A stretch of DNA of 64,000 nucleotides from Escherichia phage BF17: sequence record MW822008.1; one strand, written 5' to 3'. The translations under genes were made by a program, and so were the position numbers. The notes under the pieces are model-generated. The model did not search any database and was not told where the DNA came from. It saw only the letters and a program-made list of their open reading frames with translations. Each line of letters opens with the position of its first letter. Positions within the stretch are counted from its first letter, which is position 1. Below are positions 22,981 to 60,742 of this stretch, piece after piece.

Positions 22981-23025
22981 AATTCCCTCCTTTATTCATT
23001 ATACTATATTTAATCAAAAAGAAAA

Positions 23026-23044
23026 GCCAGCACTCTGTACTGGC
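23026..23044 (-). terminator. inter-cassette hairpin with T-run
   Basis: GCCAGCACTCTGTACTGGC, then TATAAT and AAGGAGG of the next gene. Confidence 0.55.
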
Positions 23045-23050
23045 ATAATA

Positions 23051-24202: not shown

Positions 24203-24247
24203 ATTTCCTCCTTTATTCATTATACTATATTTAATATAAAAAGAAAA

Positions 24248-24266
24248 GCCAGTATCAAGTACTGGC
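24248..24266 (-). terminator. inter-cassette hairpin with T-run
   Basis: minus strand reads GCCAGTACTTGATACTGGC TTTTCTTTTT, then TATAAT, AAGGAGG, ATG. Confidence 0.6.
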
Positions 24267-24279
24267 ATAGTATTAAGGT

Positions 24280-25410: not shown

Positions 25411-25454
25411 AATTCCTCCTTTATTCATTATACTATATTTAATCAAAAATAAAA

Positions 25455-25473
25455 GCCAGTATCAAGTACTGGC
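25455..25473 (-). terminator. inter-cassette hairpin
   Basis: GCCAGTATCAAGTACTGGC on plus strand. Confidence 0.6.
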
Positions 25474-25487
25474 ATAGTTTTATAGTA

Positions 25488-26597
25488 TCATTTCGGCATT
25501 GTAATTGCAGACCATGAGTTCGTGGTAATAGGACCTGGCACATACAAAAAAGAACCACAAGCATAAATTTGATTATTACCATCAAATACTATACTAAAAT
25601 GTGCACATGTGTATAATGCTGATTTTTCTGGGTTGTAATTATCTAAAGTTAGTGTATTGGTGAATCTACTCAAACCACCACCAGAACCATTTCTACCAAA
25701 TTCACCAGTACTATATATCTTTCCTTCGGTTGTTGCGTACATATTAACATATGAAGTTGCACTTGATTTTGATATTTTATGTATCTTACTATCAATAGTA
25801 GTGGAGTTAAATGCAAATGGATATACTTGTGTGTTCGTTGTAATACCGTTACCAAGTTGACCAACATACTGCCAACCTGCGTTGTATATATTGCTGGCTG
25901 AATAAGCAAGAGTACCAGTACTGTTACCACCAAACAGTTTAACACTGGTTAACCTGCTTACTAGTGTAGTATACTGTCCTGGACTTACGCCAAGTGAACC
26001 ATACCCACTACTCCCACAACCGAGAAGTTCACCATTTGATGTTAATATTAATGTGTTATTCTGTGTACCCAATATATCAAGGACTGTATTAGCTCCGGTA
26101 TTAATAACTGAAACAAAAGTACTCTGAGCCGTGGAATACCCACCACCGAGTGAATAGTTACCATTCATGCCTCTACCATAAACAATCGAACCACTAGCAT
26201 CAACGTAGTGCATTGTATCTGCACCAATTGATATCATTTTAATATTAGATATATGTGGAAATGAAGAAGTAACATTCAAACCACCCAACGGAATCGTAGT
26301 ATTTCCTGTGCCTAATTGTGTGGTAACTCCATGCATTATGAATTCTTCACCCTTGATATAAAGAATATTGTACGCCCCAGCCCATGCATCAGTAACACCT
26401 TCTGAAATTAATATCCAAGTATTTCTTGTTGCTGTATTTGTAACGTTTAACTGAAAATACGAATTAACCCCACAACCATAAAGTGAGCCATCGCCATAGA
26501 GGACGTACAAATTATCAAGACCGCACAGTACTTTCTTTATCTTTGGATCTTCAGGTGCAATATTCCCGTAATCAAACATTCTAACAAAAGGTAACAT
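25488..26597 (-). CDS. array member 6: RCC1-like repeat protein
   Basis: trimmed to MLPFVRMFDYGN; VGQLGNG repeat. Confidence 0.7.
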   Translation of the reverse strand: MLPFVRMFDYGNIAPEDPKIKKVLCGLDNLYVLYGDGSLYGCGVNSYFQLNVTNTATRNTWILISEGVTDAWAGAYNILYIKGEEFIMHGVTTQLGTGNTTIPLGGLNVTSSFPHISNIKMISIGADTMHYVDASGSIVYGRGMNGNYSLGGGYSTAQSTFVSVINTGANTVLDILGTQNNTLILTSNGELLGCGSSGYGSLGVSPGQYTTLVSRLTSVKLFGGNSTGTLAYSASNIYNAGWQYVGQLGNGITTNTQVYPFAFNSTTIDSKIHKISKSSATSYVNMYATTEGKIYSTGEFGRNGSGGGLSRFTNTLTLDNYNPEKSALYTCAHFSIVFDGNNQIYACGSFLYVPGPITTNSWSAITMPK

Positions 26598-26642
26598 ATT
26601 TCCTCCTTTATTCATTATACTATATTTAATACAAAAAGAAAA

Positions 26643-26661
26643 GCCAGTATCAAGTACTGGC
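26643..26661 (-). terminator. inter-cassette hairpin
   Basis: GCCAGTATCAAGTACTGGC. Confidence 0.6.
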
Positions 26662-26668
26662 CTATATC

Positions 26669-27406
26669 TTAGACTGAATTGTCAGGATAATATCTCCCAC
26701 GTCCCCATATTATTCGCACAGCACCACCACCAGCAGCCGTATAAGAAGAATTATCCCATATACTACCACCACCACCATACCTCTTACCAGCACCACCACT
26801 ACCAGCACCACCATTATATGAACCATCGTAGCTACCACCAATACCATTAGCACCTTGAACAATGATACCAGTACCACCACCCGTACCAATGAACGAGGTA
26901 TTATAGAATGCACCACCACCACCGCCCCCGCCAGCACCATTTTCACCAGTGATTGCATTTCCGTTACCACCTTTACCTGTGTAGCCACCAGCACCACCAC
27001 CAATGACTGCACCACCACTTAAACCAGTGTTGCCACCATTACCACCACCATCATTAATAGCGTTAGCAGCTTTTCCACCTAGTCCACCAACCGTATATGC
27101 ACCAGTGAAGCTAACACATAGTTTTTCAGTTCCACGATATAAACCGTTTTCAACTGCTGTAGTAGTGTTGGGATGTGTAAGAGAAACACTTAAGTACTCA
27201 CCACCAGAAACCGGAATATTATTACGCCACGATAAGCCGCCACCAGCACCACGTTGACCACCCGGCGAAATAACACATACTGATATTTCGGTAACGCCAG
27301 CAGGAACTGTAAATTGTGTTGTTCCTATTGTCGTGATTAATTGTTCACCATGTGGCTTATATTCAATTTTATTCCCGAACTTAACCATTCTTGCAAAAGG
27401 TAACAT
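26669..27406 (-). CDS. array member 7: glycine-rich protein with the shared N-terminal tag
   Basis: 245 aa; MLPFARMVKFGN followed by long poly-Gly tracts. Confidence 0.7.
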   Translation of the reverse strand: MLPFARMVKFGNKIEYKPHGEQLITTIGTTQFTVPAGVTEISVCVISPGGQRGAGGGLSWRNNIPVSGGEYLSVSLTHPNTTTAVENGLYRGTEKLCVSFTGAYTVGGLGGKAANAINDGGGNGGNTGLSGGAVIGGGAGGYTGKGGNGNAITGENGAGGGGGGGAFYNTSFIGTGGGTGIIVQGANGIGGSYDGSYNGGAGSGGAGKRYGGGGSIWDNSSYTAAGGGAVRIIWGRGRYYPDNSV

Positions 27407-27451
27407 AATTCCCTCCTTTATTCATTATACTATATTTAACCAAAAAGAAAA

Positions 27452-27470
27452 GCCAGTATCAAGTACTGGC
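27452..27470 (-). terminator. inter-cassette hairpin
   Basis: GCCAGTATCAAGTACTGGC. Confidence 0.6.
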
Positions 27471-27477
27471 TTTTACA

Positions 27478-28668
27478 TTACAATTGTCTAGGTGTATCCA
27501 GTACATATCTATTTGTACTAGGACCACCATCATCATAAGTTCCGGTTGAATATATATTTTTCATATCAGCAGTTAGGAAAGTACGTAACGACCCTCGATA
27601 TATTTTTATTTTATCATACATAGAATATGTTATTTCTGACGGCAATGGACATGCAGTAAATTTACCAATGGTAACATTAGAACCAACACCCAATGAACCA
27701 GCATAACTACTCGCATTTAAACCTGTTGCATATACACCAGAACTCGTAACTAGTATACTAGATTGTGCTGGGTATCCAGTATGAATTGAATACAAAGTAC
27801 CGGGTGGTAAGGTTGAACTATTATTTCCTAATACTGCTCGTGCTGTACTAGACGTAGTGTTATTACCCCATGCCCCATTATTGGCGTTCCCACCCACTAG
27901 GAACTGACGTGCTCCTGTACTTGGATTCTCCACTAAAGCACTGACTGCACCAATTGTACATACAACATATTGTAATGTTTTTGTATATGTTGTACTTGGC
28001 TGATATAAAGTATATTGATTGTATGGAGTCCATGTATCAGTAGTACTTATACCTGATGTACTACCACCAATATATAAATTATTTTGTGTATCATAAAACA
28101 TTACACAGCTATTTGTTGACTGTATTCGTGCAATATCAACATTAGGCGTGACAGCTTTTACAAATGATCCATCTGTTATTTGTTGAGTACTACCAGTACC
28201 ATCAGCGAATTGTCTAGCCCCACTCCAACCAGTACTCCATATTGTATTATTATCCATTAAGAAAGTAAACCAAGTAGTACCTGCATACATCTGTTTAATT
28301 GAAGTACCTGAACTTTGTGTGTACAAATTTTCAATATATTGGTTATAACTTAAAAATGATGTAGTACTAGTTTCTAAACCAATATGACCACCATATCCAC
28401 AATAAAAATAATTTAAGTCCTTATCTTGAACTAACAAAGTTCCTTGTGTCATCCAGCAATCTTTGACATTTTCTCTAATTAATGTCCACGACCTTACTGC
28501 ATTATTATTTCCGCGACCGAACTTCCCATAACTATTATTTCCTCGTGCGTATAGTTGACCGTCAGTATAAAGTACAACCACATCAGTATCAGTTGGTATT
28601 ATTTTCTTAATTAGAAGAGGTTCAGGTGTGATATTCCCATAATCAAACAATCTAACAAAAGGTAACAT
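27478..28668 (-). CDS. array member 8: beta-propeller-like repeat protein
   Basis: 396 aa; MLPFVRLFDYGN; Thr/Ser/Asn/Gly-rich. Confidence 0.7.
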   Translation of the reverse strand: MLPFVRLFDYGNITPEPLLIKKIIPTDTDVVVLYTDGQLYARGNNSYGKFGRGNNNAVRSWTLIRENVKDCWMTQGTLLVQDKDLNYFYCGYGGHIGLETSTTSFLSYNQYIENLYTQSSGTSIKQMYAGTTWFTFLMDNNTIWSTGWSGARQFADGTGSTQQITDGSFVKAVTPNVDIARIQSTNSCVMFYDTQNNLYIGGSTSGISTTDTWTPYNQYTLYQPSTTYTKTLQYVVCTIGAVSALVENPSTGARQFLVGGNANNGAWGNNTTSSTARAVLGNNSSTLPPGTLYSIHTGYPAQSSILVTSSGVYATGLNASSYAGSLGVGSNVTIGKFTACPLPSEITYSMYDKIKIYRGSLRTFLTADMKNIYSTGTYDDGGPSTNRYVLDTPRQL

Positions 28669-28713
28669 ATTTCCCTCCTTTATTCATTATACTATATTTA
28701 ACCAAAAAGAAAA

Positions 28714-28732
28714 GCCAGTACTTGATACTGGC
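28714..28732 (-). terminator. inter-cassette hairpin
   Basis: GCCAGTACTTGATACTGGC. Confidence 0.6.
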
Positions 28733-28738
28733 GTAATG

Positions 28739-29881
28739 TCAATAAGCTTCCCACGGTAAGGGTGTCTTCCTAAATCCATACCTGGTTGTGGTCGCACCAT
28801 CACCAGCAATGTATCGACCGATACCACATTGGTATAACTCTGTACTACTACATATAGCACCACCAATAGTACCACTACTCCACAGAATTATATTAGAATA
28901 TGTTATTGGTAAATCACTACATTTAGTATATACACCAACGGTAGCAGCCCCACTAATACCACCAAACATACTTCGGTTAGCACCAGTATAATATATACCA
29001 TCTGGACTCATAAATGCAGAGGTGTAAGTTGTACTACAATCCACTGGACTTCTTATAGTATTAAGATCGCCTGGGTATGTCCTGGCACCAAAGGTGTATA
29101 CATTACCATCAGTTGTAATACCATTACCTAACTGCCCACTGTTTTGTCCACCACATGTAAGCAACAATGCAGAACCAGAAACAATTGCAGTAGCATTATA
29201 CGAAGTACCCATCGCAATAGAAGCACCAGACAATAGTTTTGGAGTAACAATAGCTGTTGTATTACCCTGGCCTAATTCACCATTGATATTTCGTCCCCAT
29301 GCGTATATAGAAGTTGTATCCAATCGACATAGTACTGAACCATAACTAAACGTATATCGCATGTCAATTACCGCATTAGGCAAATTAACCTTAGTTGCAA
29401 CACTAATAACACCACCAGTAACACCACTGTTTGCGTTCATGTTACGACCATATGCATATAAAGAACCATCTGAAGTTTTAATATGCATCATACCATCTGT
29501 ACAATACAATGCATCTATACTATCCACTGCAACCGGACCCATACTGGTAGTTATATCGGTCCACCCAAGCGTGGTAGTACTGGAAATTAAGTTATTTCCG
29601 GCGTATAGTATTCTATTATTATTAGTAACTACAACTGTATATCTGGCAGTAACACCAATTAATCGAACATCAGTATATATCTTAGACCACGCACCTAATG
29701 AATTGGTGTTTGCATCCAAAAAGCCCAACTGCCCATCTGTATTGTATCCAATACCCCATACATCACCTGCACTGTCCAATAACACTTCATGTGAAAATCC
29801 AATCTTAAAATCTTTTATTGTAGGAACTACCGGAACTGGTGCAATATTCCCGTACTTAACCATTCTAGCAAAAGGTAACAT
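28739..29881 (-). CDS. array member 9: RCC1-like repeat protein
   Basis: 380 aa; MLPFARMVKYGN; DGQLG, NGELGQG, SGQLGNG repeats. Confidence 0.75.
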   Translation of the reverse strand: MLPFARMVKYGNIAPVPVVPTIKDFKIGFSHEVLLDSAGDVWGIGYNTDGQLGFLDANTNSLGAWSKIYTDVRLIGVTARYTVVVTNNNRILYAGNNLISSTTTLGWTDITTSMGPVAVDSIDALYCTDGMMHIKTSDGSLYAYGRNMNANSGVTGGVISVATKVNLPNAVIDMRYTFSYGSVLCRLDTTSIYAWGRNINGELGQGNTTAIVTPKLLSGASIAMGTSYNATAIVSGSALLLTCGGQNSGQLGNGITTDGNVYTFGARTYPGDLNTIRSPVDCSTTYTSAFMSPDGIYYTGANRSMFGGISGAATVGVYTKCSDLPITYSNIILWSSGTIGGAICSSTELYQCGIGRYIAGDGATTTRYGFRKTPLPWEAY

Positions 29882-29927
29882 AATTCCCTCCTTTATTCAT
29901 TATACTATATTTAATACAAATAAGAAT

Positions 29928-29946
29928 GCCAGTATCAAGTACTGGC
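29928..29946 (-). terminator. inter-cassette hairpin
   Basis: GCCAGTATCAAGTACTGGC. Confidence 0.6.
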
Positions 29947-29952
29947 ATTATG

Positions 29953-31062
29953 TTATTTTGGTAAATCAATTTTAGTAAAGACTGCAACATCCTCGCTTGC
30001 TCCAGGAATGGCGTAATACGATCCAGTACTATACACATCTCCATCTTTGGTTAATATTGATGTCAAACCATCACTAAAAAGAACATCCCTAATTGCACTA
30101 ACTTCAACGGGTAATTGTAAATTTGTAGCACTATATATAGCACCAGTTTGAGAATTGTTTAATCCCAAACCACGGTTCGCCCCAACACCCTTCTGATATG
30201 TACTAGTAATTACCATTTGTGTCGCAGTATTTAAGGCAGGTGAATTCGTCATAAACAACGGAGAACTATTCGGCAAAGTACTTACAGGAACTGCACGGAA
30301 TGTAGTCGTACCTGAACTAAGAAAGTTTGGAGTTTGACCACATACGAAATATGATGTGCCATTATAGTAATTTAATGCATTACCACCAATTGCTGCATCG
30401 ATTACACCAGAACTACGTAATCCCCAAGTGTTAACTTGTGTTTGGCTCCCCGTGCCATGCTGCCCACTGCTATTCCATCCAGAACTATATAGCTTATTAT
30501 CTAATGTAAGATACATACTATCATTCGCATTGGTCATTACTTTACGAACGTTCGTAGCACATTGAGTTAATGTGTAAATTGATGATGAACCAATACCTAA
30601 AGAACCACGATATCCATTATCTCCTGCACCATAGAGTACTGAATTAGTGCTAAGTACAAATATTAAACCATTTGTACATACAATATTAGCAATTTCACTT
30701 ACTGGTATTGCATTTGTGAACCAACTGGTTCTATCAACTAATACAGTACTGTAAGAAGTAGTTGTGGAAGATGTGAACCAGTACGTTTGACCTGATGACC
30801 ATATCGTATTATCATTTTTAATAATAACAAGTGTACGATCACCCACGAAAAAATTAGAAACATCTGTACTTACTAATATCCATGAGGATACTGTGTTGGT
30901 ATTTCCATTTCCAGATTCACCACCTTGATTTCTACCTATGTAATATAAATCATGTGAATCTGTCAATAAGAATTGACCCTGTGTAGAAGCACCAACTTTA
31001 ATTATATTTTTAGGACCAGGTGTGATATTCCCATAATCAAACAATCTAACAAAAGGTAACAT
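29953..31062 (-). CDS. array member 10: beta-propeller-like repeat protein
   Basis: 369 aa; MLPFVRLFDYGN; 10 nt downstream of member 11. Confidence 0.7.
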   Translation of the reverse strand: MLPFVRLFDYGNITPGPKNIIKVGASTQGQFLLTDSHDLYYIGRNQGGESGNGNTNTVSSWILVSTDVSNFFVGDRTLVIIKNDNTIWSSGQTYWFTSSTTTSYSTVLVDRTSWFTNAIPVSEIANIVCTNGLIFVLSTNSVLYGAGDNGYRGSLGIGSSSIYTLTQCATNVRKVMTNANDSMYLTLDNKLYSSGWNSSGQHGTGSQTQVNTWGLRSSGVIDAAIGGNALNYYNGTSYFVCGQTPNFLSSGTTTFRAVPVSTLPNSSPLFMTNSPALNTATQMVITSTYQKGVGANRGLGLNNSQTGAIYSATNLQLPVEVSAIRDVLFSDGLTSILTKDGDVYSTGSYYAIPGASEDVAVFTKIDLPK

Positions 31063-31072
31063 ATTTCTCTCC

Positions 31073-32203
31073 TTAATTTAGTAATGCCCCTGGCAAATCC
31101 ACTTTGACGAATTGTGCATATGCTGAGGAATTTTGATCAAAGTTTGGTCCCAATCCATAAAATGAGCTAATGCCGTCTTCATTTGTGTATATGATATAAA
31201 CGTTCTTTACATCATTTCCGCATATAAATCGAATGTCTTTCGTTTGTGTTCCCGCTGGAACATTACGAAGGTTCACAACGCCATTACTTGCATTGTTATC
31301 AGCCGACGCAATTGGTAATTGATTTTGACCATATTGACCACGCATATTTTTTGCATCTAAACCAAACACAGTATCTGATACCGCACCAACTTTCAAAAAT
31401 GAACCAAAACTATTATTGAATGACTTTGGAAATGTACCACTATAAACACTTCTCCCATCTGATAATACCGCTGAACTGAATTTCCCGCTATTCGATATGG
31501 CAAATTCATTGTAAGGAAGTGTACCCATTTTGGTATATACAGAATATGAATTAGTGGAAGTATTATCAATAATCTTATTACCATTATATCCAATACCATA
31601 CTGGTATCCGTCTGCATCTTGAACTATACACAAAGGACCACTTGGGGTTTGTGTCAACGAAACAACACGTTCAACTTGTATATCACCAAATGTATTTCTT
31701 CGCCATGTTCTATCTATTATAGTACTAGTATTACCCAAAGATAATGCCACACTATATAATAGATTGTTTTCAGTAAAAATGGCAACATAATATGCGTGGT
31801 TAATAACTTGCTTCATCCCAGCATCAATAACTTCCTGTGGAATATGATCAGTAACATCCAACCAATCAAGGTTAGATGATGCAATATCTGGAGTACTGAA
31901 TTTGTCAAATCTAGTTGAGCCACAAACTAGCACTCTATCATCATTTGTCAAAGCCACTGTGCTAGTCTGCATATTAGAACTGAATGATTTAACATTACTA
32001 ATGTTAGACTTGTACCAACCCTTATCAGCAGCACCCACCGTGAATCCGGTTCCCATTGATCCACTTGTACTTGTACCATAAGCCCACATCTCACCACTAT
32101 ATGTTAGTGCCATACAGTGGCTTCCATTTGCTTGGAAATCCTTTATACCAGTGGGAGCAACCACTGTATTCCCATAATCAAACATTCTAACAAAAGGTAA
32201 CAT
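31073..32203 (-). CDS. array member 11: beta-propeller-like repeat protein
   Basis: trimmed to MLPFVRMFDYGN; more divergent body. Confidence 0.65.
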   Translation of the reverse strand: MLPFVRMFDYGNTVVAPTGIKDFQANGSHCMALTYSGEMWAYGTSTSGSMGTGFTVGAADKGWYKSNISNVKSFSSNMQTSTVALTNDDRVLVCGSTRFDKFSTPDIASSNLDWLDVTDHIPQEVIDAGMKQVINHAYYVAIFTENNLLYSVALSLGNTSTIIDRTWRRNTFGDIQVERVVSLTQTPSGPLCIVQDADGYQYGIGYNGNKIIDNTSTNSYSVYTKMGTLPYNEFAISNSGKFSSAVLSDGRSVYSGTFPKSFNNSFGSFLKVGAVSDTVFGLDAKNMRGQYGQNQLPIASADNNASNGVVNLRNVPAGTQTKDIRFICGNDVKNVYIIYTNEDGISSFYGLGPNFDQNSSAYAQFVKVDLPGALLN

Positions 32204-32245
32204 AACTAAAATCTCCATATAATAATTATAATGTATTTACAAAAA

Positions 32246-32269
32246 AATACCAGTACGTATTTCAGTACT
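32246..32269 (-). terminator. inter-cassette hairpin (variant)
   Basis: ACCAGTACGTATTTCAGTACTGGT. Confidence 0.5.
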
Positions 32270-32277
32270 GGTATCAT

Positions 32278-33459
32278 TTATGGTAAAATGATAGATTGTA
32301 ACGAACTCATACCCAATGCTGGAACACTAGCCTGTGGTGCTGGAGAATTCAATTTTGGTGATGAAACCGCATAAGTCATTCCTGTACCCAAATCTGGATC
32401 AAAAACTACAGCACAATAATTCCCACTATATATAAGTCCATTCTTGTATCCTTGTGCACTTTGAATGCATTTCGTGAACGTACCAATATCTGTAGTGGCA
32501 TTTATTAAGTTCCTCCCACGATAACCGCAGGTGTATATGAAATTATCATCGCCTATGTACATACTAGAATCCCCAGAAGAACTACATAGATACGACATAT
32601 AAGCACGCATGTTTTTAGGAGCAACTGACAATGTACCTGCATAGAATTTATTATTCGAACCCGTAATATCACCATCACCCAATGCACCAAAACTTCCCCA
32701 GCCAGTACCGTAATATCTCTTATCACTCAAAAATATAATACAGTTGTTATTACACATCTTGATTTGATATATCAATGAAGGATCAACCCCAGGGAATGAT
32801 TCAGTGAATGTTAGAACAGCCGGATCAGTACTAGCATTACATTGATGATATGTATTAGTACCAGCGGACAAGATTGTTCCATTAGCTAACAGAATTCTCG
32901 CAGTACCAGTACCAGCAGTACAAGCAACTGCACTTCCTGCACTTCCGGTGTATATTTGTCTGAAAGTAAAGAAACCAACAGTCTTACTCCCTTGTCCACT
33001 CCAACCAGTATTATCAACACCACACGCCCATACTGAACCATCTTCCATGATCATCATTACACCAAAGCGTTCTATTGAAATATAAACAATCTTTTTAGTA
33101 TCAACTGCACGAAATCTAGAAGTTATATCCGTCCAAACCTTTACACTTACCGAAGTCGCACTGGAAGTAGGATCTTCACCTGCTATCATTATCCTACCAT
33201 TGTTAGTCAGATACATTGTCTGACTATAACCAGTACTACAAAACTTAACACTATCAGTCTCTGGAACTTTTAACCACTCGTTGTAACGTGTTACGTTAGT
33301 GTTATTACCTAACTGATAATAGTTATTCATCCCAGATACATATAACACACCATCCTTTATTAAACTATAAGTCGCACTATAGTCACTACAGGTATAACGT
33401 GTACCCACAGGTCGCTCAACGACGTTCCCATAATCAAACATTCTAACAAAAGGTAACAT
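32278..33459 (-). CDS. array member 12: beta-propeller-like repeat protein
   Basis: 393 aa; MLPFVRMFDYGN; 9 nt downstream of member 13. Confidence 0.7.
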   Translation of the reverse strand: MLPFVRMFDYGNVVERPVGTRYTCSDYSATYSLIKDGVLYVSGMNNYYQLGNNTNVTRYNEWLKVPETDSVKFCSTGYSQTMYLTNNGRIMIAGEDPTSSATSVSVKVWTDITSRFRAVDTKKIVYISIERFGVMMIMEDGSVWACGVDNTGWSGQGSKTVGFFTFRQIYTGSAGSAVACTAGTGTARILLANGTILSAGTNTYHQCNASTDPAVLTFTESFPGVDPSLIYQIKMCNNNCIIFLSDKRYYGTGWGSFGALGDGDITGSNNKFYAGTLSVAPKNMRAYMSYLCSSSGDSSMYIGDDNFIYTCGYRGRNLINATTDIGTFTKCIQSAQGYKNGLIYSGNYCAVVFDPDLGTGMTYAVSSPKLNSPAPQASVPALGMSSLQSIILP

Positions 33460-33468
33460 GATTTTCTC

Positions 33469-34662
33469 CTATGATTGCCATAACTGCGTTGGCATTAATG
33501 TTAATGTTTTAATTAAGTAAGTACCATCCGGTAAGTTACCACCTGAACCGTTAAAGCCCCCACATGCATATAATTTATAATCTTTAGTTATAATTATTGT
33601 TCTGGACCAGTCTTTGGATGCCATAAGAACATTGTCATATCCACCCTGTATCGCACTTAAAGAAAACGCCCCCCACGAAGTAATTACTGTTGTATTTCCC
33701 GTCCCTTCTTGACCATATGTATTGATGCCTGCACTCCTGACATATGATGGGTATTGAGCCATAGGTGCACCAATTGTTGAGTTACCCATATTACTAGGAC
33801 ACAGGAAACCATCACTAATATTCACTATAACCTGTGAATTCTGAACTGTAGTTAATTGGTTTGTAGTTGAAGTAGTACCATTCCCAGCTTGTCCAGAATT
33901 GTTTCTACCACTCCAGTACACCCTACCGGCAGTGAACCACCAGGTAACATCATAAGTAGCACTTATATAATCGACGTTGGTTCGTATTAATTTATTAGTA
34001 AAAACGTATGAGCTAGTCCCACCACCACTTTCACCAAAGTTATCCTTACCACAAAACCATGCTTCTTTATTTGTTTTGAGATAGTGCGTACCCTGTAATG
34101 AACACGCCAATTGAGAAACTTCACCCATACCAGTAACAACTGTTAGTACTGGAATGGAATTTTGGTTACCTGTTCCACATTCGGCATTTGCATTTTTACC
34201 ACAAACAACTACTCTTCCATCGTGTAGTAATATTCTAGTACTTTCACCTATATGTACACTCTTGATTAAATTAGCGTGTACATTTATTTTGTTAAATGCG
34301 GCAGTAACATCAGTCCATGTTCTAAAATAACCATTAACTGGAGTTGCATCTCCATAATCGGGGAATGCTACAGTATTCCCTGTGAAATATATTCTATTAT
34401 CCAAGTCAATCATCAATGAGCCATGAACGCCTAACCAAAAGGCTGCACAGTGCGTTGCCAGTACTGTAAAAGTAGAAACTGTCGATTGATTCCCTAGACC
34501 TAATTGGCTCAAGTTATTACCACCATAACCGTATAGTGTATTCGTGGGCTTATGTAGATACATAGCATTAGTATAATGTTGCTGTAAAACATCAGTGAAC
34601 TCAACTGGTTCAGGAATAGGCAGTTTATTCCCGTATTTAACCATTCTTGCAAAAGGTAACAT
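33469..34662 (-). CDS. array member 13: RCC1-like repeat protein
   Basis: 397 aa; MLPFARMVKYGN. Confidence 0.7.
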   Translation of the reverse strand: MLPFARMVKYGNKLPIPEPVEFTDVLQQHYTNAMYLHKPTNTLYGYGGNNLSQLGLGNQSTVSTFTVLATHCAAFWLGVHGSLMIDLDNRIYFTGNTVAFPDYGDATPVNGYFRTWTDVTAAFNKINVHANLIKSVHIGESTRILLHDGRVVVCGKNANAECGTGNQNSIPVLTVVTGMGEVSQLACSLQGTHYLKTNKEAWFCGKDNFGESGGGTSSYVFTNKLIRTNVDYISATYDVTWWFTAGRVYWSGRNNSGQAGNGTTSTTNQLTTVQNSQVIVNISDGFLCPSNMGNSTIGAPMAQYPSYVRSAGINTYGQEGTGNTTVITSWGAFSLSAIQGGYDNVLMASKDWSRTIIITKDYKLYACGGFNGSGGNLPDGTYLIKTLTLMPTQLWQS

Positions 34663-34725
34663 ATTTCCCTCCTTTATTCATTATACTATATTTAATCAAA
34701 AATAAATGCCAGTACTCATTTAATT

Positions 34726-35880
34726 TTAACGAGGTATAACTATTTTTTTGAATAATCCAGTATTTCCTGCATTTTCTTCTTCATATGGAATTGTACCCAT
34801 ACCAGCAGTTCTGCCACCATTCCCTGAACCATACAGTTCTCCATTCTTAATCATGAATGTTATCATATAACCATGTGTCATTTTATCATATGGAACTGGT
34901 TCAGTTATATTATTACATGCTCGCCATGTACTAATAACACGAGAGTTCGTTATACCATCACCTGATGCGTTTCCTCGACCAGCGAAATACCATATCCCAC
35001 CTGCTCTAACGTGTGCTTCATAATTAGAACCACCTATGTAATCAATCGCAGTACTAGGAATACTAGAAGCTGGTATCTTTGTGATTGTTCTAAGACTGTT
35101 AATAGTGCCATCAGTTCCATCACCCAACTGTCCATCTATTTGTGAACCGAATACATATAGCCCATCACTCTTTAATACGTAATTAGCACTATATGCATTT
35201 TCTGAATTTATCTGTAATACTCCAGTAGTAACAGTAGTCAATGTGGTAGTTGTACTAGTCGTACCAGTCGAACCAATACTAGATTTATTCCCACTGTACT
35301 TTAATGTCCCATCATTGTATAATACAAATGAAGCATTATTCGCGGTTACACCAATATCTTTAACATCAACTTCAGGTGTCAATGTCAGTACTGATACTCT
35401 TTGTCCAACAGCCCCAGTAAAAACTTCACCGTTGTTATTGTCACCCATCTTATATAATTTATTATCTATTGTTAATAATAATGTAACGCCGTTTCCTATA
35501 ACTATTTTACTATATGTGTCATTCACATTATTAAAAATACCAAGTATTTCTGTCCATACACGATAAGTAGTATTAACACCACGATAGATTTGAGTACCAG
35601 TACTCCACCATGTGCCATCATTTTTACGTACTAATATTCCTTGTGTATCACCAGTAGTCCAAAATTCCTTTACATCAGTTAAACATAAAACCCACTCTTC
35701 AACTATAGTAGGAGAACTACTACCAGTACCTAATTGATAGTAAAAATTATGCCCTCTGCCATATAATCTTCCGTCTTCTAATAAAATAAACACATTATTC
35801 TGTAAAACTTTTACCATCTTTATACCAACTGGCACAGGTGCTTCATTCCCATAATCGAACATTCTAACAAAAGGTAACAT
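34726..35880 (-). CDS. array member 14: RCC1-like repeat protein
   Basis: ORF 34726-36015 trimmed to MLPFVRMFDYGN; DGQLGDGTDGT. Confidence 0.7.
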   Translation of the reverse strand: MLPFVRMFDYGNEAPVPVGIKMVKVLQNNVFILLEDGRLYGRGHNFYYQLGTGSSSPTIVEEWVLCLTDVKEFWTTGDTQGILVRKNDGTWWSTGTQIYRGVNTTYRVWTEILGIFNNVNDTYSKIVIGNGVTLLLTIDNKLYKMGDNNNGEVFTGAVGQRVSVLTLTPEVDVKDIGVTANNASFVLYNDGTLKYSGNKSSIGSTGTTSTTTTLTTVTTGVLQINSENAYSANYVLKSDGLYVFGSQIDGQLGDGTDGTINSLRTITKIPASSIPSTAIDYIGGSNYEAHVRAGGIWYFAGRGNASGDGITNSRVISTWRACNNITEPVPYDKMTHGYMITFMIKNGELYGSGNGGRTAGMGTIPYEEENAGNTGLFKKIVIPR

Positions 35881-35926
35881 ATTCCCTCCTTTATTCATTA
35901 TAATATATTTAATACAAAAAAGAAAA

Positions 35927-35945
35927 GCCAGTATCAAGTACTGGC
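35927..35945 (-). terminator. inter-cassette hairpin
   Basis: GCCAGTATCAAGTACTGGC. Confidence 0.6.
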
Positions 35946-35953
35946 ATATTAAT

Positions 35954-37102
35954 TTACTGCACAAATGACATATCGACTTCGGTATAATTAAGAACGTTCT
36001 GTCCAGCACTACCACCCATTACTACAAATGAAGCACCCGAATAATATAACTTCGAAGTGTCAGTAAGTATAAGTGAACCAGATGGAGTGCGTACCAAATT
36101 ACACGAAGTATTAAACGAAGTATATGAAGGAGTATAGGAGTACTGATTATTATTATTACCAACACCTAATTGCCCAAACCCATTCGATCCAGAAGCATAT
36201 AGAACTTCATCTGCTTTGACAATATGTGATGCCATGTTACCAACACAAGTATATAGAGTATAAACTCCTGAACTCAATAATGTCGGAGTTTTATATTGTA
36301 TATCTGTAGATGTAGAAGTACCACCTGTACCAAATTCGTTCCCATATTGTGCACCGAACTGTTTACCACAAGCGTACAAATTATTATCCGATTTGATAAA
36401 AAATGTACTCTGATAACTTACATTAAAATCTATAACATCCGAAGAAATCATCGTCACCCCAGTAATAGAAGTTTGATTACCCGTGCCCAACTGGTAGTAA
36501 TAGTTAAAACCACAACCCCATAAAGTATTATCTTCTCGCAAATAAATGTTACCAACTGCCTTTTTAACCGAAGTTATAGTATCTACTCTTTTGAATGTGT
36601 TAAAAGAATTAATGTTTGTGCCATCACCAAATGATGATATGTTCGATATATTGTTAGTTCCACAACAATACAATGTACCATCGTTTGTTATCAAATTCAC
36701 CTTCATATCATAAAAACTACTCATGTATTTTATATCAGAAACATTAATACCACTTGATGTTATCCACGTAGTACAGTCCGTCCACAAAGTTTTTCTATCA
36801 GTTACACCAGTGAATGCCTTCGTGTTACCAGTGATAAAAACTTTTCCAGTACCTTTCTCTTCATACAATTGACAATCACTACTGTTATCTTCCAATAGAA
36901 CTCGTTTAACATTCTCCGCACAAAGAATAAATTTACTCGATGTTACACCTGTACCAGTACCCCAATTCGCCGCAGAAGATGCATACAACTTATCAGTATA
37001 AGTATCATGAAGATACATAGAATCACTGGAATATATTTTAAAACGCCCAGAGTTGGTAGGTGCTTCATTCCCATAATCAAACATTCTTACAAAAGGTAAC
37101 AT
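35954..37102 (-). CDS. array member 15: RCC1-like repeat protein
   Basis: 382 aa; MLPFVRMFDYGN; YYQLGTGNQTS and FGQLGVGNNNN; 12 nt downstream of member 16. Confidence 0.75.
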   Translation of the reverse strand: MLPFVRMFDYGNEAPTNSGRFKIYSSDSMYLHDTYTDKLYASSAANWGTGTGVTSSKFILCAENVKRVLLEDNSSDCQLYEEKGTGKVFITGNTKAFTGVTDRKTLWTDCTTWITSSGINVSDIKYMSSFYDMKVNLITNDGTLYCCGTNNISNISSFGDGTNINSFNTFKRVDTITSVKKAVGNIYLREDNTLWGCGFNYYYQLGTGNQTSITGVTMISSDVIDFNVSYQSTFFIKSDNNLYACGKQFGAQYGNEFGTGGTSTSTDIQYKTPTLLSSGVYTLYTCVGNMASHIVKADEVLYASGSNGFGQLGVGNNNNQYSYTPSYTSFNTSCNLVRTPSGSLILTDTSKLYYSGASFVVMGGSAGQNVLNYTEVDMSFVQ

Positions 37103-37114
37103 ATTTCCTCCAAA

Positions 37115-38020
37115 TTATTTAAAAACATACTGCGTATTAACACGTGTCCCGTTGTCGTAACCAAGTACGTAAAATATTTCAGCACTATTATTAGAGCCAA
37201 ATAATGCACCAGTACTATTACTCAACGTTGTATTGATAGCTAATGGTATCCATTTGTTTTGCTCGGCATCATATTTTAATAAATTTAATGCACCATAAGA
37301 TACTGCATATATACCTTTGTCATATCTATTGTAAATTATCTTACTAGGGTTAGCTCCACCAACTGCTGCCATTCTTGACCAAACCGCACTCTCTATGTGA
37401 TATTTTTGTGCAGGAGTAGATCCTTGTCCTGTAAAATATATGTAAGTACCATCAGTGCACATATCACCACCACCATTGTTTGTTGTATTCCCAGTAGTAC
37501 CTAACGATGCCCATGTATTAGTACTCGGCGTATAACTATATAATGCAGTATTAGACGGTGAACCCCACAAATATATCTTATCCCCTGTAGTAATCATCTT
37601 ACTATATACTGCCTGGTTAGGTTTGCCAACACTTGTATTATTCAGTGTCCATGTATCAGAGCTTATGTCATATACATAAAAATTATTATTAGCAACATTC
37701 GCTGCACCTAAACCACCGAACAAATATATTTTTCCTTGATAGGCACACAATGCACTTCCATAGGTGGATACTGGTGGTGATGATAATTGTACCCATATTC
37801 TAGAATTTAAATTAAAACTCCATAACTGATTATCCTGGTTCGAAGTATTCATTATACCACCAAATATATAAGCAGTATTTCTTGATGCATCATACGTATA
37901 ACCAAAGTTATTTCGTGCTGAAGGTACTGGTGATGTGGTAAATTGAGTTCGTACACCACCATTTGGGACTGGTAATGGAGCTTCATTCCCGTAATCAAAC
38001 ATTCTAACAAAAGGTAACAT
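37115..38020 (-). CDS. array member 16: Kelch-like repeat protein with the shared N-terminal tag
   Basis: 301 aa; MLPFVRMFDYGN then repeated IY(L)FGG...W blades. Confidence 0.7.
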   Translation of the reverse strand: MLPFVRMFDYGNEAPLPVPNGGVRTQFTTSPVPSARNNFGYTYDASRNTAYIFGGIMNTSNQDNQLWSFNLNSRIWVQLSSPPVSTYGSALCAYQGKIYLFGGLGAANVANNNFYVYDISSDTWTLNNTSVGKPNQAVYSKMITTGDKIYLWGSPSNTALYSYTPSTNTWASLGTTGNTTNNGGGDMCTDGTYIYFTGQGSTPAQKYHIESAVWSRMAAVGGANPSKIIYNRYDKGIYAVSYGALNLLKYDAEQNKWIPLAINTTLSNSTGALFGSNNSAEIFYVLGYDNGTRVNTQYVFK

Positions 38021-38123
38021 AAATCCCTCCTTTATTCATTATATCATATTTACCCCAAAAAGAAAACCCTTGACAACCTTCCAGTACTGATGTACTATAG
38101 AAGGAATATAAGGAGAACTGTAC
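38021..38123. promoter_or_regulatory. divergent promoter region
   Basis: minus-strand TATAAT/AAGGAGG for member 16 plus plus-strand TTGACA-17-TACTAT and AAGGAG for 38124. Confidence 0.5.
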
Positions 38124-43520: not shown

Positions 43521-44194
43521 TTACTTTCACCTTAATTTCAATTACCCTTTTACCCGTCGGGGTAAAATTCAATTACCCCTTGAGGCTCCAGAAAAAAGTT
43601 GGTTAGTACTCCATCCTAAATCTCGATCCTAAAAATTTTGGAGTACCTATGAAATAAAAGTTGGATCTTCGAAAGTTGAAATTTACGTTGGGACGTTTAT
43701 GATTTGTGGGATATAATGATGTTTGTAGACGGGTAGTTCTCAAGAATATCAGTACTGAATAATGAAAGAAAGTTATTGACATTATGATTCAGTACTGTAT
43801 AATGTTCTACATAGCTTCAAGGGTGATGAGTTGCTGCGAACAATTCATTTACTCTACCTCCTGTCGTGAGACAGTACAGAAAAGATAGTTCCTCCTGTGG
43901 TGGTACATCTTTTTGAACCTCATATGAAAATCGTAATAACAGTACTGATATTAACAGAATGGTGTCAGTACTGATTTTAATCTAAAGCATTATGCCACCA
44001 GCACAAGCTGGTGGATTCCCTCTAACAGTATTCAGTACTACATGATAGTCTTCATCCTCCTAGGGTAACATAGTGAGGGCTATGATGGCAGTACTGAATA
44101 CTCCCTTTCAAAAGATAGATCTATGGTATAGTACTGACGGATTTTGGGCGTAGTTACCCTGGATGGATTTTGGACGTAGATATGTCTAGCCCTC

Positions 44195-44335
44195 CAGAAG
44201 TCTGGAAGTAAAGATGGCTATCCATCTAGACGGCTAAACGGCTAGATTTCTGGATGGCTAGATGGCTAGACGTTTGGACGGCTAAACGGCTAGATGGTTA
44301 CACGTCTGGAAGTATAGACGGCTAAATCAAAATTT
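44195..44335. repeat. iteron-like cluster of GGCTA(A/G)A / ACGGCTA repeats
   Basis: GGCTA nine times in ~130 bp. Confidence 0.55.
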
Positions 44336-45081: not shown

Positions 45082-45142
45082 ACTTGCAAACTAAGTTTAA
45101 CGGCGTATAATGTTTTACATCGAGAGCGGGAACACTTCCCGC
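45082..45142 (+). promoter_or_regulatory. early-type sigma70-like promoter with leader hairpin
   Basis: ACTTGCAAACTAAGTTTAACGGCG TATAAT ... GCGGGAACACTTCCCGC. Confidence 0.6.
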
Positions 45143-46850: not shown

Positions 46851-47092
46851 GCAGTTTACAAATCTTTACAATTGCCGGTATTGACTTATTTTGTCAGTAC
46901 TGGCATAATGTATTCATTGGCAGATAAGCCGTAGCCCATAGGGTGCGGGAGTGTATCTATAGAAAAAGTAGTTTATTACAGTTACAATTGTGCACCCGGT
47001 GGGTTAGCTGTTGTCATGGGGTATATTATGCCAGTACTTGATAATGCTGTCAATACTTTTTTTACTATTCAGTACTGAAAACTATTTTTAAA

Positions 47093-47130
47093 AAGTACTT
47101 GCAAACTATGTTTAAAGGCGTATAATGTTT
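47093..47130 (+). promoter_or_regulatory. early-type promoter driving a non-coding leader
   Basis: ACTTGCAAACTATGTTTAAAGGCG TATAAT; no ORF before the next promoter. Confidence 0.55.
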
Positions 47131-47215
47131 TACATCAGGACGGGGAACGAAATAAGTAACTCCCCGTTAAGTAGCCCAGGAGTAAGGCACACGAAAAACT
47201 CCCCTGATAAAATAG
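47131..47215 (+). ncRNA. candidate small RNA / structured leader, copy 1
   Basis: ~85-nt conserved block CAGGACGGGGAACGAAA.AAGTAAC.CCCGTTAAGTAG.CCAGGAGTAAG...CCCCTGATAAAA; second copy at 57447-57525. Confidence 0.4.
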
Positions 47216-47262
47216 TTTGACAAATGTTTTTAAAAGCGTATAATACTTACATCAACTACTGA
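47216..47262 (+). promoter_or_regulatory. promoter upstream of 47277
   Basis: TTGACA ... TATAAT before GAGGG and ATG. Confidence 0.45.
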
Positions 47263-47276: not shown

Positions 47277-47888
47277 ATGAAAACTATCACTACTACTACT
47301 TTCGTTATGGATTTTTCTGAATTGAACGCAGAACAAAAAACGTCAGCTATCGAACTGGTTCGGGAACGTGAAAAAAACTTAAACGATGATTATTTTTCTG
47401 AAAGTGAAATTGAATACTATAAAGAAACAGTACTACCGGAATATGGCATTAATGACGCTGATTTACGTTTCAGTGGCTTTTGGTCCCAGGGTGACGGTGC
47501 ATCAATCAGTACTGACCACGTTGACGCAGTGAAGTTTTTACGCAAGGTAAGAGCATTAACTAAGTATCGCTCAATCCGTCACTTGCTGAATGAAGATGAT
47601 TTGGCGATGAGTGTAAAGCGTTCTCACTCCCACTACTCGCATGAAAACACTGTAAGCGGGTACATTGAATCGGCTTACACTGATTTAACCGCAAAACAAG
47701 AAACGTTAGTTAATGAGCTTGAGGAACTACTCACTGAAACTATTCGTGAATTATCCCGCAAGTTGTACCGTGATTTAGAGAATGCATATGAGGATCAATT
47801 CACTACTGAAAACATTACGGCACTGATTGAGGGTAACGAATATCAATTCAATGTTATTGATGGCGTAGTAGAATCAATCGAATATTAA
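47277..47888 (+). CDS. hypothetical acidic protein
   Basis: 203-aa ORF. Confidence 0.65.
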   Translation: MKTITTTTFVMDFSELNAEQKTSAIELVREREKNLNDDYFSESEIEYYKETVLPEYGINDADLRFSGFWSQGDGASISTDHVDAVKFLRKVRALTKYRSIRHLLNEDDLAMSVKRSHSHYSHENTVSGYIESAYTDLTAKQETLVNELEELLTETIRELSRKLYRDLENAYEDQFTTENITALIEGNEYQFNVIDGVVESIEY

Positions 47889-48845: not shown

Positions 48846-49009
48846 CAACGCGGGGAGATAATAACTCCCCGTTACTTTTTCAGTACTGAATCATTTAATA
48901 GACGGATCTATGCACCCGGTGGGTTAGTGACTGTTTCGTCTTGATGTAGTAATTATGCCAGTACTGGATGCACTTGTCAACAACTATTTTTCAAATACTT
49001 TTTATTAAA

Positions 49010-49966: not shown

Positions 49967-49995
49967 TAGCCCACCTGGTGGGCTTTTTTGTTTTT
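49967..49995 (+). terminator. rho-independent terminator
   Basis: AGCCCACCTGGTGGGCT + TTTTTGTTTTTG. Confidence 0.65.
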
Positions 49996-50043: not shown

Positions 50044-50072
50044 TTGACATTACCGCAGAAAAGCGTAGAATG
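50044..50072 (+). promoter_or_regulatory. sigma70-like promoter with ~120-nt leader
   Basis: TTGACA, 16-17 nt, TAGAAT. Confidence 0.5.
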
Positions 50073-50194
50073 TATTACATCAAGACGGGGAGCACTAAGT
50101 AGACCGCCAGTAAGTCGAACGAAAAACTGGACACGTCGAGAAAACTTTGATACACTAATAAACGTAAACTAAACTTTAATTGAGGATTTATAAA

Positions 50195-50677
50195 ATGGCT
50201 AATGTAAAATCATTCATCAAAGCACTGGTAGCAAATGAAACTAACGTCGCGGCTGAGATCCTGGCTGAACTGGATAACGATACCATGAAAGCGGTACGCA
50301 ATAATTTTAACATCGCGTACAGTACTGCGAAAGAACTACAAGCAAATAAAGCGGCAGAAATTGAAGCGGCAAAGGCGGCCCGTGAAGCAGAACTACAAGC
50401 AACAATCGAAAGTATTCAGGCGGCAGTAGTTGGATTGGATCTGGAAGTAGTTACAGAGATGGCACAAAAAGCCCTGGCGGTTAAGTATGGGGAAGACAAG
50501 CCAGAAGTAAAAGCCAAAAAATGGATTCAGGAACGCGTAGCGGTAGTACTGGACAACGGGGAAGAATATCTGATTCCGGTGCGTGGTAACTGCATTGCGG
50601 TAGTACTGGACGCGATTAACTCCAGTGGTATGACTCGCGAGGAATGGATCGAAGCTCATCGCAAAGTTGAAGCATAA
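50195..50677 (+). CDS. hypothetical Ala/Glu-rich protein
   Basis: trimmed to MANVKSF after GAGGA; ~160 aa. Confidence 0.6.
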   Translation: MANVKSFIKALVANETNVAAEILAELDNDTMKAVRNNFNIAYSTAKELQANKAAEIEAAKAAREAELQATIESIQAAVVGLDLEVVTEMAQKALAVKYGEDKPEVKAKKWIQERVAVVLDNGEEYLIPVRGNCIAVVLDAINSSGMTREEWIEAHRKVEA

Positions 50678-53800: not shown

Positions 53801-53866
53801 GTACTTGCAAACTATCTCAATTGGCGTATAATGTTTTACATCGAGAGGGGGAACGGTTTCCCCTGG
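53801..53866 (+). promoter_or_regulatory. early-type promoter with leader hairpin
   Basis: ACTTGCAAACTATCTCAATTGGCG TATAAT; hairpin GGGGGAACGGTTTCCCC. Confidence 0.6.
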
Positions 53867-57270: not shown

Positions 57271-57284
57271 AAATATTTGAAAAA

Positions 57285-57306
57285 GGGATTGACTCCGGTC
57301 AGTCCC
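57285..57306 (+). terminator. hairpin terminator with embedded TTGACT
   Basis: GGGATTGACTCCGGTCAGTCCC. Confidence 0.55.
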
Positions 57307-57414
57307 TTTGCTATTATATACGCATAGAAACAAATCAGCCCACAGGGTGCATAAATGTATCTATTGTTTGCTGGTGGCTAGTACTGAAAACTATTTTTAA
57401 AAAAGTACTTGCAT

Positions 57415-57446
57415 TGTACTTAGAATCAAGTATAATGTTTTACATC
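57415..57446 (+). promoter_or_regulatory. early-type promoter driving the second candidate small-RNA copy
   Basis: ACTTGCATTGTACTTAGAATCAAG TATAAT. Confidence 0.55.
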
Positions 57447-57525
57447 AGGACGGGGAACGAAACAAGTAACCCCGTTAAGTAGTCCAGGAGTAAGACATAA
57501 GAAAACCTCCCCTGATAAAATAGTT
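57447..57525 (+). ncRNA. candidate small RNA / structured leader, copy 2
   Basis: near-identical to 47131-47215; again between an upstream promoter and a downstream TTGACA...TATAAT. Confidence 0.4.
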
Positions 57526-57585
57526 TGACAATAGAAAGTAAACGAGTATAATACTTACATCAACCACTGATAAGGAAACATTAAA

Positions 57586-57861
57586 ATGCGGATTCTACTG
57601 ACAGCTAACGAAATCGAACAAGTACTGACTACTAACCTGGAAGACTGGAAACGTGAAGCAGATATCCAGGCGGTTCAACTGCTTAACGATAAGTTAACGC
57701 CGGATGACTTAAGCAAGATTGTAGATCCTCAATTCTACGAAGATATCCACGACACCGCGTTAAGCGTCGAGGATGTACTAGATAAGCACTACATTGATAT
57801 TGATTTGCAGGTTTACGGTCGTAAAAACTTTATCACTATTCACGACATTTATAATAATTAA
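57586..57861 (+). CDS. hypothetical protein
   Basis: 91-aa ORF. Confidence 0.55.
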   Translation: MRILLTANEIEQVLTTNLEDWKREADIQAVQLLNDKLTPDDLSKIVDPQFYEDIHDTALSVEDVLDKHYIDIDLQVYGRKNFITIHDIYNN

Positions 57862-59054: not shown

Positions 59055-59088
59055 CGGCGGGATCAGTTCCCGCCTTTTTTATAGGATA
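59055..59088 (+). terminator. rho-independent terminator
   Basis: GGCGGGATCAGTTCCCGCC + TTTTTT. Confidence 0.65.
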
Positions 59089-59095
59089 AACTAAA

Positions 59096-59350
59096 ATGAT
59101 TAAGGTACAACTATCTAAAGATAATATCTTGCGGGTACACTATAAAGCACCACAGAGAATCATCACAAAGGCCGTACAGCTTGCTAATGAGTTTATTAAT
59201 GGTAACCTATTACCAAGGAAGTTAAGCAACGGAAAACTGCGTGTAATCGATGTAGACACTAACAACAGAATAGTAATTGAGAACACAGGAAAGATAAACC
59301 TATATGAACACCAACAATATAATAAGAAAATAAAACTAATATCACGTTGA
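59096..59350 (+). CDS. hypothetical protein
   Basis: 84-aa ORF. Confidence 0.5.
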   Translation: MIKVQLSKDNILRVHYKAPQRIITKAVQLANEFINGNLLPRKLSNGKLRVIDVDTNNRIVIENTGKINLYEHQQYNKKIKLISR

Positions 59351-60674: not shown

Positions 60675-60742
60675 GTACTTGCATTGTACTTAGAATCAAG
60701 TATAATGTTTTATATCGAGAGGGGGGGAACGGTTCTCCCTCA
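60675..60742 (+). promoter_or_regulatory. early-type promoter with leader hairpin
   Basis: ACTTGCATTGTACTTAGAATCAAG TATAAT; hairpin GGGGGGGAACGGTTCTCCCTC. Confidence 0.6.

Follow-up and report, generated by a model that had tools for sequence, protein, structure and literature searches.

What is the element that fills some 75 nucleotides between two early promoters of a jumbo coliphage, and that recurs nearly unchanged elsewhere in the same early region? The question arises in Escherichia phage BF17 (MW822008.1), of which we analyzed a stretch of 64,000 nucleotides (the window). An initial annotation of this DNA had noted two near-identical blocks and had proposed that they encode a small RNA. 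The region around the first (block A) shares 96-99% identity with jumbo coliphages of the PBECO4/121Q type (Asteriusvirus, about 350 kb), and in one phage, vB_Ec-M-J, the homologous DNA is annotated within a 21.5-kb direct terminal repeat, with the block 3.7 kb from the left genome end. A literature search for an Asteriusvirus transcriptome found none. Small early genes are densely packed from 44.5 to 64 kb of the window, and nearly all of them have a sigma-70 promoter to themselves (AAAAAGTACTTGCA-N17-TATAAT-N7-A). At about +4, most of these promoters have a simple hairpin (GGGGA-loop-UCCCC), which precedes the Shine-Dalgarno sequence and the start codon; between 45084 and 63160, the hairpin GGGG(A/G)-loop-(U)CCCC is perfect at more than 25 early promoters (for example, 45112-45140, 53833-53860 and 60707-60735). 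The initial transcribed sequence ATCGAGAGGG is common to several of the ordinary early promoters of the window and to promoter A1 of phage T7.

The arrangement of promoter, block and second promoter was borne out in both places, all on the plus strand. Upstream of block A lies a sigma-70 promoter (47099-47126) with a -35 TTGCAA, a 16-nt spacer, a -10 TATAAT at 47121-47126 and an A/T-rich UP-like tract upstream. Alignment of the annotated T7 A1 start (TACAGCC-A-TCGAGAGGG) with the window (GTTTTAC-A-TCAGGACGGGG) places the probable transcription start at A47134; written as RNA, TACAGCC-A-UCGAGAGGG matches GUUUUAC-A-UCAGGACGGGG. Block A occupies 47134-47208 (75 nt) and is followed 8 nt later by a consensus promoter (TTGACA-16-TATAAT, 47217-47244) without the usual 5′ hairpin, and then by an early gene at 47277-47888 (203 aa, phrog_5162). 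Similarly, block B (57444-57516, 73 nt) follows a promoter at 57409-57436 (-10 at 57431-57436) and precedes, again by 8 nt, a promoter of the same consensus (57525-57552) and an early gene at 57586-57861 (91 aa, phrog_14947). The promoter of block B is the first strong early-type promoter past a terminator at 57282-57309, the hairpin of which itself holds a weaker promoter-like site (57289-57317). Over 75 nt, blocks A and B are about 89% identical, with six substitutions and a single 2-nt indel between them.

A third block follows the promoter at 50044-50071 (TTGACA-16-TAGAAT), which is likewise the first strong early-type promoter past a terminator, 60 nt beyond the one at 49968-49984. This block C (50079-50151) had been described as a weaker relative; it is more than that, and contains a full core motif that scores nearly as well as that of block A (54.3 bits with the model described below). 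Block C is followed by weak promoter-like matches, with no strong second promoter, and then by the start of a gene at 50195-50677 (160 aa, phrog_27871). Each of the three blocks begins at about +1 of a strong sigma-70 promoter, and the proteins encoded downstream of all three match solely families of unknown function.

The blocks are non-coding, as had been supposed. A 31-codon ORF does span block A (47125-47220), but its ATG lies inside the -10 hexamer and its frame is disrupted by indels or stops in copy B and in the homologs in phages EJP2 and A7_1; since the ORF is destroyed in these copies, we rejected it as a gene. We also looked for an intrinsic terminator between block A or B and the promoter that follows, and found none in either interval. 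The transcript from the first promoter should therefore traverse the second promoter into the downstream gene, and a discrete small RNA would need processing. Thus, while the promoter and the conserved structure expected of a small RNA are present, the sequence does not support an independent small-RNA gene; its layout points instead to a longer leader, of which the block forms the first 75 nt. Farther along the copy-B unit, an 84-aa gene starts 20 nt past a strong intrinsic terminator (59056-59098; GGCGGGATCAGTTCCCGCC TTTTTT); since no promoter separates the two, this gene depends on terminator read-through.

Both A and B have as their minimum-energy fold a three-way junction (z-scores of -3.25 for A and -2.49 for B), in which the complementary ends and the internal G-rich and C-rich stretches singled out by the initial annotation do pair. 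The ends form helix P1 (AUCAGG/CCUGAU), whose 5′ side is nucleotides +1 to +6; the GGGG and CCCC stretches pair in P2 (ACGGGG(A)/(U)CCCCGU, with a 14-nt loop); and GGAG pairs with CUCC in P3 (GGAG(U)/(A)CUCC), which carries a conserved, purine-rich loop, (U)AAG-R-C-AYAM-GAAAA(M) (M, A or C). An 11-nt junction, UAAGUAG-YCCA, separates P2 from P3. In block A, P1 joins 47134-47139 with 47203-47208 and P2 joins 47140-47146 with 47161-47167, the junction UAAGUAGCCCA occupies 47168-47178, and P3 joins 47179-47183 with 47198-47202 around the loop AAGGCACACGAAAA. The corresponding elements of block B are P1 (57444-57449 with 57511-57516), P2 (57450-57455 with 57470-57475), the junction (57476-57486) and P3 (57487-57490 with 57507-57510). 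On its own, P3 is thermodynamically weak, with 4-5 bp around a 14-17-nt loop.

Block C keeps the junction sequence and P3, in a permuted topology and without the P2 hairpin. Its P1 pairs AUCAAG (50079-50084) with UUUGAU (50146-50151), and a possible enclosing helix, GACG (50084-50087) with CGUC (50134-50137), in which G50084 is shared with P1, contains both UAAGUAG (50096-50102) and P3 (CCAGU/ACUGG, 50107-50111 with 50126-50130). The fold of block C was no better than that of shuffled sequence (z of -0.14). A pseudoknot between GUC of the P2 loop and GAC of the junction, suggested by RNAalifold, is lost in variants with a UCAG junction, and we rejected it.

The part common to all three blocks is a core of the form UAAGUAG-N4-hairpin, in which the P3 hairpin has the loop (N)UAAG-N-C-NNNN-GAAAA. 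We built a covariance model (R1) of this core from 32 distinct homologous sequences, the three window copies among them. Applied to the 64-kb window, R1 found exactly three matches, in A (47165-47204, 55.1 bits, E of 6e-12), C (50093-50132, 54.3 bits) and B (57473-57512, 52.7 bits), and the next best site scored 8.6 bits; a degenerate pattern of the core likewise matched three times in the window and not once in 100 shuffles.

The variation among these cores is concentrated in the helices and preserves their pairing. The lower 4 bp of P3 are paired in 32 of the 32 distinct cores although three of the pairs switch on both sides (CG/GC, CG/GC/UA and UA/AU), and an invariant inner C-G pair closes a tetraloop. 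The covariation in P3 exceeded that in all of 500 shuffles, and its columns pair in 91% of cases, compared to 34-45% when the partner strand is slid by one to three columns. Such a compensatory change is found even within the window, where GGAGU/ACUCC in A and B is replaced by CCAGU/ACUGG in C. The helix just 5′ of UAAGUAG (P2) behaves similarly: in nine T7-like variants, double changes occur in four of its five pairs, giving CCGG/CCGG, CCAG/CUGG, CCAC/GUGG and CGGG/CCCG. Moreover, a 366-kb metagenomic phage contig (L016) has the same architecture with P1 (GCGGC/GUCGC) and P2 (GGGA/UCCC) replaced by other complementary sequences, and both helices are likewise replaced in its relative, Salmonella phage Munch (read by eye from the sequence). 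The unpaired nucleotides are nearly fixed. The letters TAAGTAG, TAAG and GAAAA were imposed by our pattern scans, whereas the stems were not, but homologs retrieved by BLAST show nearly the same conservation, with few substitutions (CAAGUAG in K64-1; GAACA or GAAAG in ST38, LIMEzero and Munch). Helices that change around a constant junction and a constant, asymmetric loop fit selection on an RNA fold, and not a DNA palindrome bound by protein. Thus, on comparative grounds, the compensatory changes in P3 and P2 indicate a selected RNA structure, and the alternative raised by the initial annotation, that of a plain long 5′ UTR without conserved structure, does not hold.

The distribution of the motif extends far beyond the relatives of BF17. 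With the 85-nt block as the query, BLAST found it in all Asteriusvirus genomes, and 121Q, UE-S1 and EJP2 have three copies each in the region compared; a copy in CMSTMSU, a record flagged as unverified, was left out owing to its odd deletions. The block is present at greater than 88% identity in 44 records of Asteriusvirus, Vequintavirinae and Stephanstirmvirinae, with differing promoters and downstream genes. Specifically, it is 91-94% identical in phages of about 145 kb, both Stephanstirmvirinae (muut, outra, EmilieFrey) and Vequintavirinae (A73, W70, A7_1, A5-4), in which the upstream promoter, the downstream promoter and the gene differ from those in Asteriusvirus. In Justusliebigvirus muut, the block and second promoter lead into the start of the copy-B ORF (57586-57861); in EmilieFrey and outra, a different gene follows the block; and in A7_1, both promoters have a different -10. 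Since the flanks differ among these phages, conservation of the block does not depend on them.

Pattern scans of metagenomes and viral contigs, together with BLAST, traced the 35-40-nt core to four groups: Rak2-like jumbo phages, Vequintavirinae, Stephanstirmvirinae and T7-like phages. The first group includes phages of Klebsiella, Salmonella and Erwinia (K64-1, RaK2, Munch, Hallingskeid), in which the core often lies inside annotated terminal repeats, and the last comprises 488 records of Autographiviridae found by BLAST, from at least ten host genera. In every case, a sigma-70-type promoter lies upstream at a distance of no more than about 100 nt, and the motif is on the strand transcribed from it. 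Among 100,044 bacterial and archaeal genomes scanned for the exact pattern, none had an accepted match; the one hit, in an archaeal MAG, is unpaired in the P3 register defined by the covariance model, although an offset 4-bp register exists, and we treated it as chance. A BLAST search of 5,426 E. coli genomes with the block, which has low sensitivity for such short matches, returned nothing at E≤1. No relevant family was found in Rfam 15 with the window or T7 at gathering or permissive thresholds, no tRNA or tmRNA was found by a dedicated scan, and a literature search for a description of the motif returned nothing relevant.

In T7 itself, the core lies between promoters A1 and A2, at 548-588 (60.9 bits with R1), and reads ACCGGGGUCAACCGGA-UAAGUAG-ACAG-CCUG-AUAAGUCGCACGAAAAA-CAGG. 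As with blocks A and B, it is downstream of a strong host promoter and upstream of a second one, and the spacing of the tandem promoters is similar (118 bp in the window, 128 bp in T7); the A1 transcript starts at 498 and the motif ends 3 nt before the -35 of A2. Whereas the blocks of the window start at about +1, the copies in T7-like phages begin near +50, behind a distinct 5′ hairpin; they also lack the closing stem P1, their P2 is short and has a GUCAA loop, and they contain an additional loop nucleotide. In distant T7-like genera, the stretch with the motif is the sole part of the A1 leader that still aligns. In the literature that we could search, the interval from A1 to A3 is presented as otherwise featureless non-coding DNA, with no function given. 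Thus, as judged by sequence and model, the core is one copy of a widespread, unannotated early-leader RNA motif in phages of Enterobacterales, T7 included.

T7 also narrows the ways in which the motif could work. Dunn and Studier reportedly described in 1983 an RNase III site, R0.3, at about 890, which separates the A1 leader from the 0.3 mRNA. Since this cleavage parts the leader from the message, the T7 motif cannot act through stabilization or translation of the mRNA, and it must act co-transcriptionally, in trans after its release, or as DNA.

The reading that we favor, and hold tentatively, is that the block is encoded in cis, as a structured domain in the 5′ leader of early transcripts that the host sigma-70 polymerase synthesizes. 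Its core would be read by a host factor and act co-transcriptionally on the elongation complex; we hold the part that names the polymerase more loosely. In this scheme, P1 would pair the 5′ end of the transcript, and the fixed single-stranded nucleotides would be read by a factor common to all these phages. This factor is probably encoded by the host, since the phage groups share little beyond their hosts and the early use of the host sigma-70 polymerase. It would act during RNA synthesis or just afterwards; the likeliest candidate is host RNA polymerase during elongation, or an accessory factor of this enzyme, and the outcome would be a complex resistant to pausing or termination, functionally like those formed on HK022 put or on nut/boxA leaders. 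As a secondary effect, P1 might protect the 5′ end in the jumbo-phage version. Several observations weigh against this reading: no similarity to put was found, no boxA lies near the copies in the window, P3 alone is weak, and copy C folds no better than its shuffles. Moreover, promoters A2 and A3 of T7 drive the same operon without the motif, and to our knowledge no antitermination has been reported in decades of in vitro work on A1 templates.

Among known leaders, put resembles the block in design. The putL and putR sites of HK022 start at +2/+3 of an early host-polymerase transcript, consist of two stem-loops and need no phage protein nearby; put RNA binds RNA polymerase and suppresses pausing and termination (PMC9378689). 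Like our block, put is about 70-75 nt long, has two stem-loops and lies directly past an early host-polymerase promoter; unlike the block, it has no closing stem and forms a triplex. Antitermination by put is factor-independent and depends on the zinc-binding domain of the β′ subunit. R1 had no match in the HK022 genome at E≤1, and we found no similarity to putL or putR in sequence or by model.

The lambda nut sites and the boxB-boxA sites of rrn operons are also promoter-proximal leader RNAs that combine a hairpin with a conserved single-stranded sequence, although P3 is not of the boxB type, which has a 5-bp stem with a pentaloop. Matches to boxA (GCUCUUUAACAA) in the window occurred at chance frequency, and none was near any of the copies. 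In contrast to the window, boxA-like CGCUCUUUAACAA occurs downstream of the motif in T7 and in Waewaevirus-type phages; in leaders of the latter type, the motif is about 30 nt upstream of boxA-like CGCUCUUUAACAAUCUGG, and the same sequence is found in T7. A boxA is also carried by the leaders of the Waewaevirus-like contig L086 and LIMEzero. The boxA-like CGCTCTTTAACAATCTGG is found at 811-830 of T7 (L048), 4165-4185 of L086 and 928-945 of LIMEzero (L090); it is identical over 18-19 nt between T7 and the Waewaevirus-like contig, and the LIMEzero copy overlaps an annotated promoter. R1 had no match in the P1-P2 leader of E. coli rrnB. We rejected mimicry of the rrn leader, in that the local alignment with T3-type A1 leaders shared just ACGGRACAACGGC and 11 of 300 shuffles scored equally. 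A marginal resemblance was seen between ACGGAACAACGGC of the rrnB P1 leader (L097, 373-386) and ACGGGACAACGGC, which lies at a similar distance from the T3-type A1 start (L050, L057).

Since the block is like put in its size, its two-hairpin build and its position at the 5′ end, since B and C follow terminators and the unit of B contains a further one ahead of a promoterless gene, and since boxA-like sequences lie near the motif in other phages, we favor co-transcriptional action. A bolder form of this reading, which we regard as speculative and on balance unlikely, is that the motif defines a new class of leader RNA that binds host RNA polymerase and is unrelated to put. T7-like, Rak2-like, rV5-like and phAPEC8-like phages would place it past an early promoter at the leading end of the genome, such that the first polymerases become resistant to pausing and termination, early transcription is secured and, in T7, so is the polymerase-driven entry of the genome. 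If the motif is real, a covariation-supported RNA structure lies inside the A1 transcription unit of T7, in DNA that is among the most used in molecular biology. Its sharing among unrelated phages points to a host factor that is exploited in the first minute of infection, and early regulatory RNA modules, not genes alone, would be exchanged among jumbo, ~145-kb and ~40-kb phages.

We considered that the 5′ 75-80 nt might instead be cut off and accumulate, and work in trans, either by titrating a host protein or defense factor (as a decoy or sponge) or as a base-pairing regulator. This comes nearest to what the initial annotation had proposed, and we see it as possible, if on the unlikely side. 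The RNA would have its own strong promoter, a compact fold and a protected 5′ end, its conserved loops could bind a host factor, and the A/U-rich single-stranded tail after P1 (AUAAAAUAGUUU) could be a site of the RNase E type. Furthermore, the A1 leader of T7 is released by RNase III. However, neither a terminator nor a known processing site follows the block, the conserved single-stranded stretches are just 5-7 nt long with no target identified, and nothing similar was found in the E. coli BLAST, low as its sensitivity is, or in the exact-pattern scan of the 100,044 genomes.

A further possibility is that the block amounts to a larger form of the simple 5′ hairpin, a passive stabilizer or insulator that guards the leader of the first promoter from 5′-end-dependent decay or Rho loading and has no specific ligand. 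Stem-loops at the 5′ end do stabilize E. coli mRNAs. As in the ompA 5′ UTR and the simple hairpins of the window, the stem of the block begins within a few nucleotides of +1, with P1 pairing +1 to +6, and the GGGGA-loop-UCCCC hairpins occupy the same position at more than 25 early promoters. These stabilizers, however, are single hairpins without conserved unpaired sequence, whereas the block also has a junction and a second hairpin, both conserved across phage groups. Passive protection leaves unexplained why unpaired nucleotides are near-invariant in four groups while the stems change; T7-like phages, moreover, have a separate hairpin 5′ of the motif and lose the leader from the mRNA by cleavage. 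We therefore doubt this explanation and consider it quite unlikely.

We also asked whether the block works at the DNA level, on the second promoter. As an UP-like A-tract, or through a DNA-binding protein of the host or the phage, it would then determine how active this promoter is or how far apart the tandem promoters lie. In most contexts, the next -35 is indeed within 0-40 bp, and adjacency is the rule in T7-like phages, in which it follows after 3 nt (CAGG-YAUUGACA) and the GAAAAA tract then falls at about -48 to -44. Yet this distance varies from 3 to about 40 bp, and copy C and leaders of the LIMEzero type have no closely adjacent strong promoter (in LIMEzero, the next annotated putative promoter is ~30 nt on). 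Moreover, the motif invariably follows a promoter and lies on the transcribed strand, and double changes that keep complementarity around a fixed asymmetric loop are the opposite of what a protein-bound inverted repeat should display. A DNA element is thus improbable and fits poorly with the covariation and with conservation that is independent of the flanks.

A functionless spacer that hitchhikes by recombination between promoter cassettes fits these observations poorly too and is most improbable: the early region is a mosaic of promoter-hairpin-small-gene cassettes common to unrelated phages, but block identity is 91-100% where both flanking promoters and the gene differ (A7_1, EmilieFrey), and a core with covarying stems persists in about 500 T7-like genomes. 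Arbiol et al. are said to have described, in 2010, a related arrangement in T4-type phages, the PeSL cassettes, in which a stem-loop is followed by a promoter and which are thought to be recombination substrates. Both are repeated promoter/stem-loop modules between small early genes that promote shuffling, and the block, too, travels between phage groups with promoters; unlike in PeSL, its conserved part is a transcribed, covarying RNA fold.

Other recurrent elements were noted in the early region. A second non-coding motif, CCCAYNGGGTGCRNNARTGTA, occurs seven times in the window (0 expected), at 46935, 53738, 55400, 57339, 60612 and 62574 on the plus strand and at 46983 on the minus strand. 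Every copy is 25-45 nt downstream of a promoter-like site, and two are directly upstream of the promoters of blocks A and B; this motif may be another short leader or small RNA. Leftward consensus-like promoters (TTGACA-17-CATAAT, minus strand) face rightward early promoters at 46881-47053 and 48952-48980 and could give rise to short antisense transcripts; the convergent pair at 46881 (plus) and 47053 (minus), about 115 bp apart, is just upstream of block A. Composite hairpins of the form GGGTTGACTTCGGTCAGCCC-TTTTT-GCTATAAT, in which the -35 hexamer lies inside the terminator stem and the U-tract runs into the -10, are found at 964, 4558, 7601, 12073, 12656, 15416, 53676, 57282, 60550 and 62515. 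At 44164-44323, near the expected left end of the phage genome (about 43.4 kb), there are 8-bp periodic repeats (GGCTAGAT / GGCTAAAC ...). Finally, on the minus strand at 19886-38089, about 16 tandem paralogous genes are spaced at ~1.2 kb, with near-identical 5′ ends and upstream regions, and their homologs in 121Q are annotated as RCC1-like "DNA condensation" proteins.
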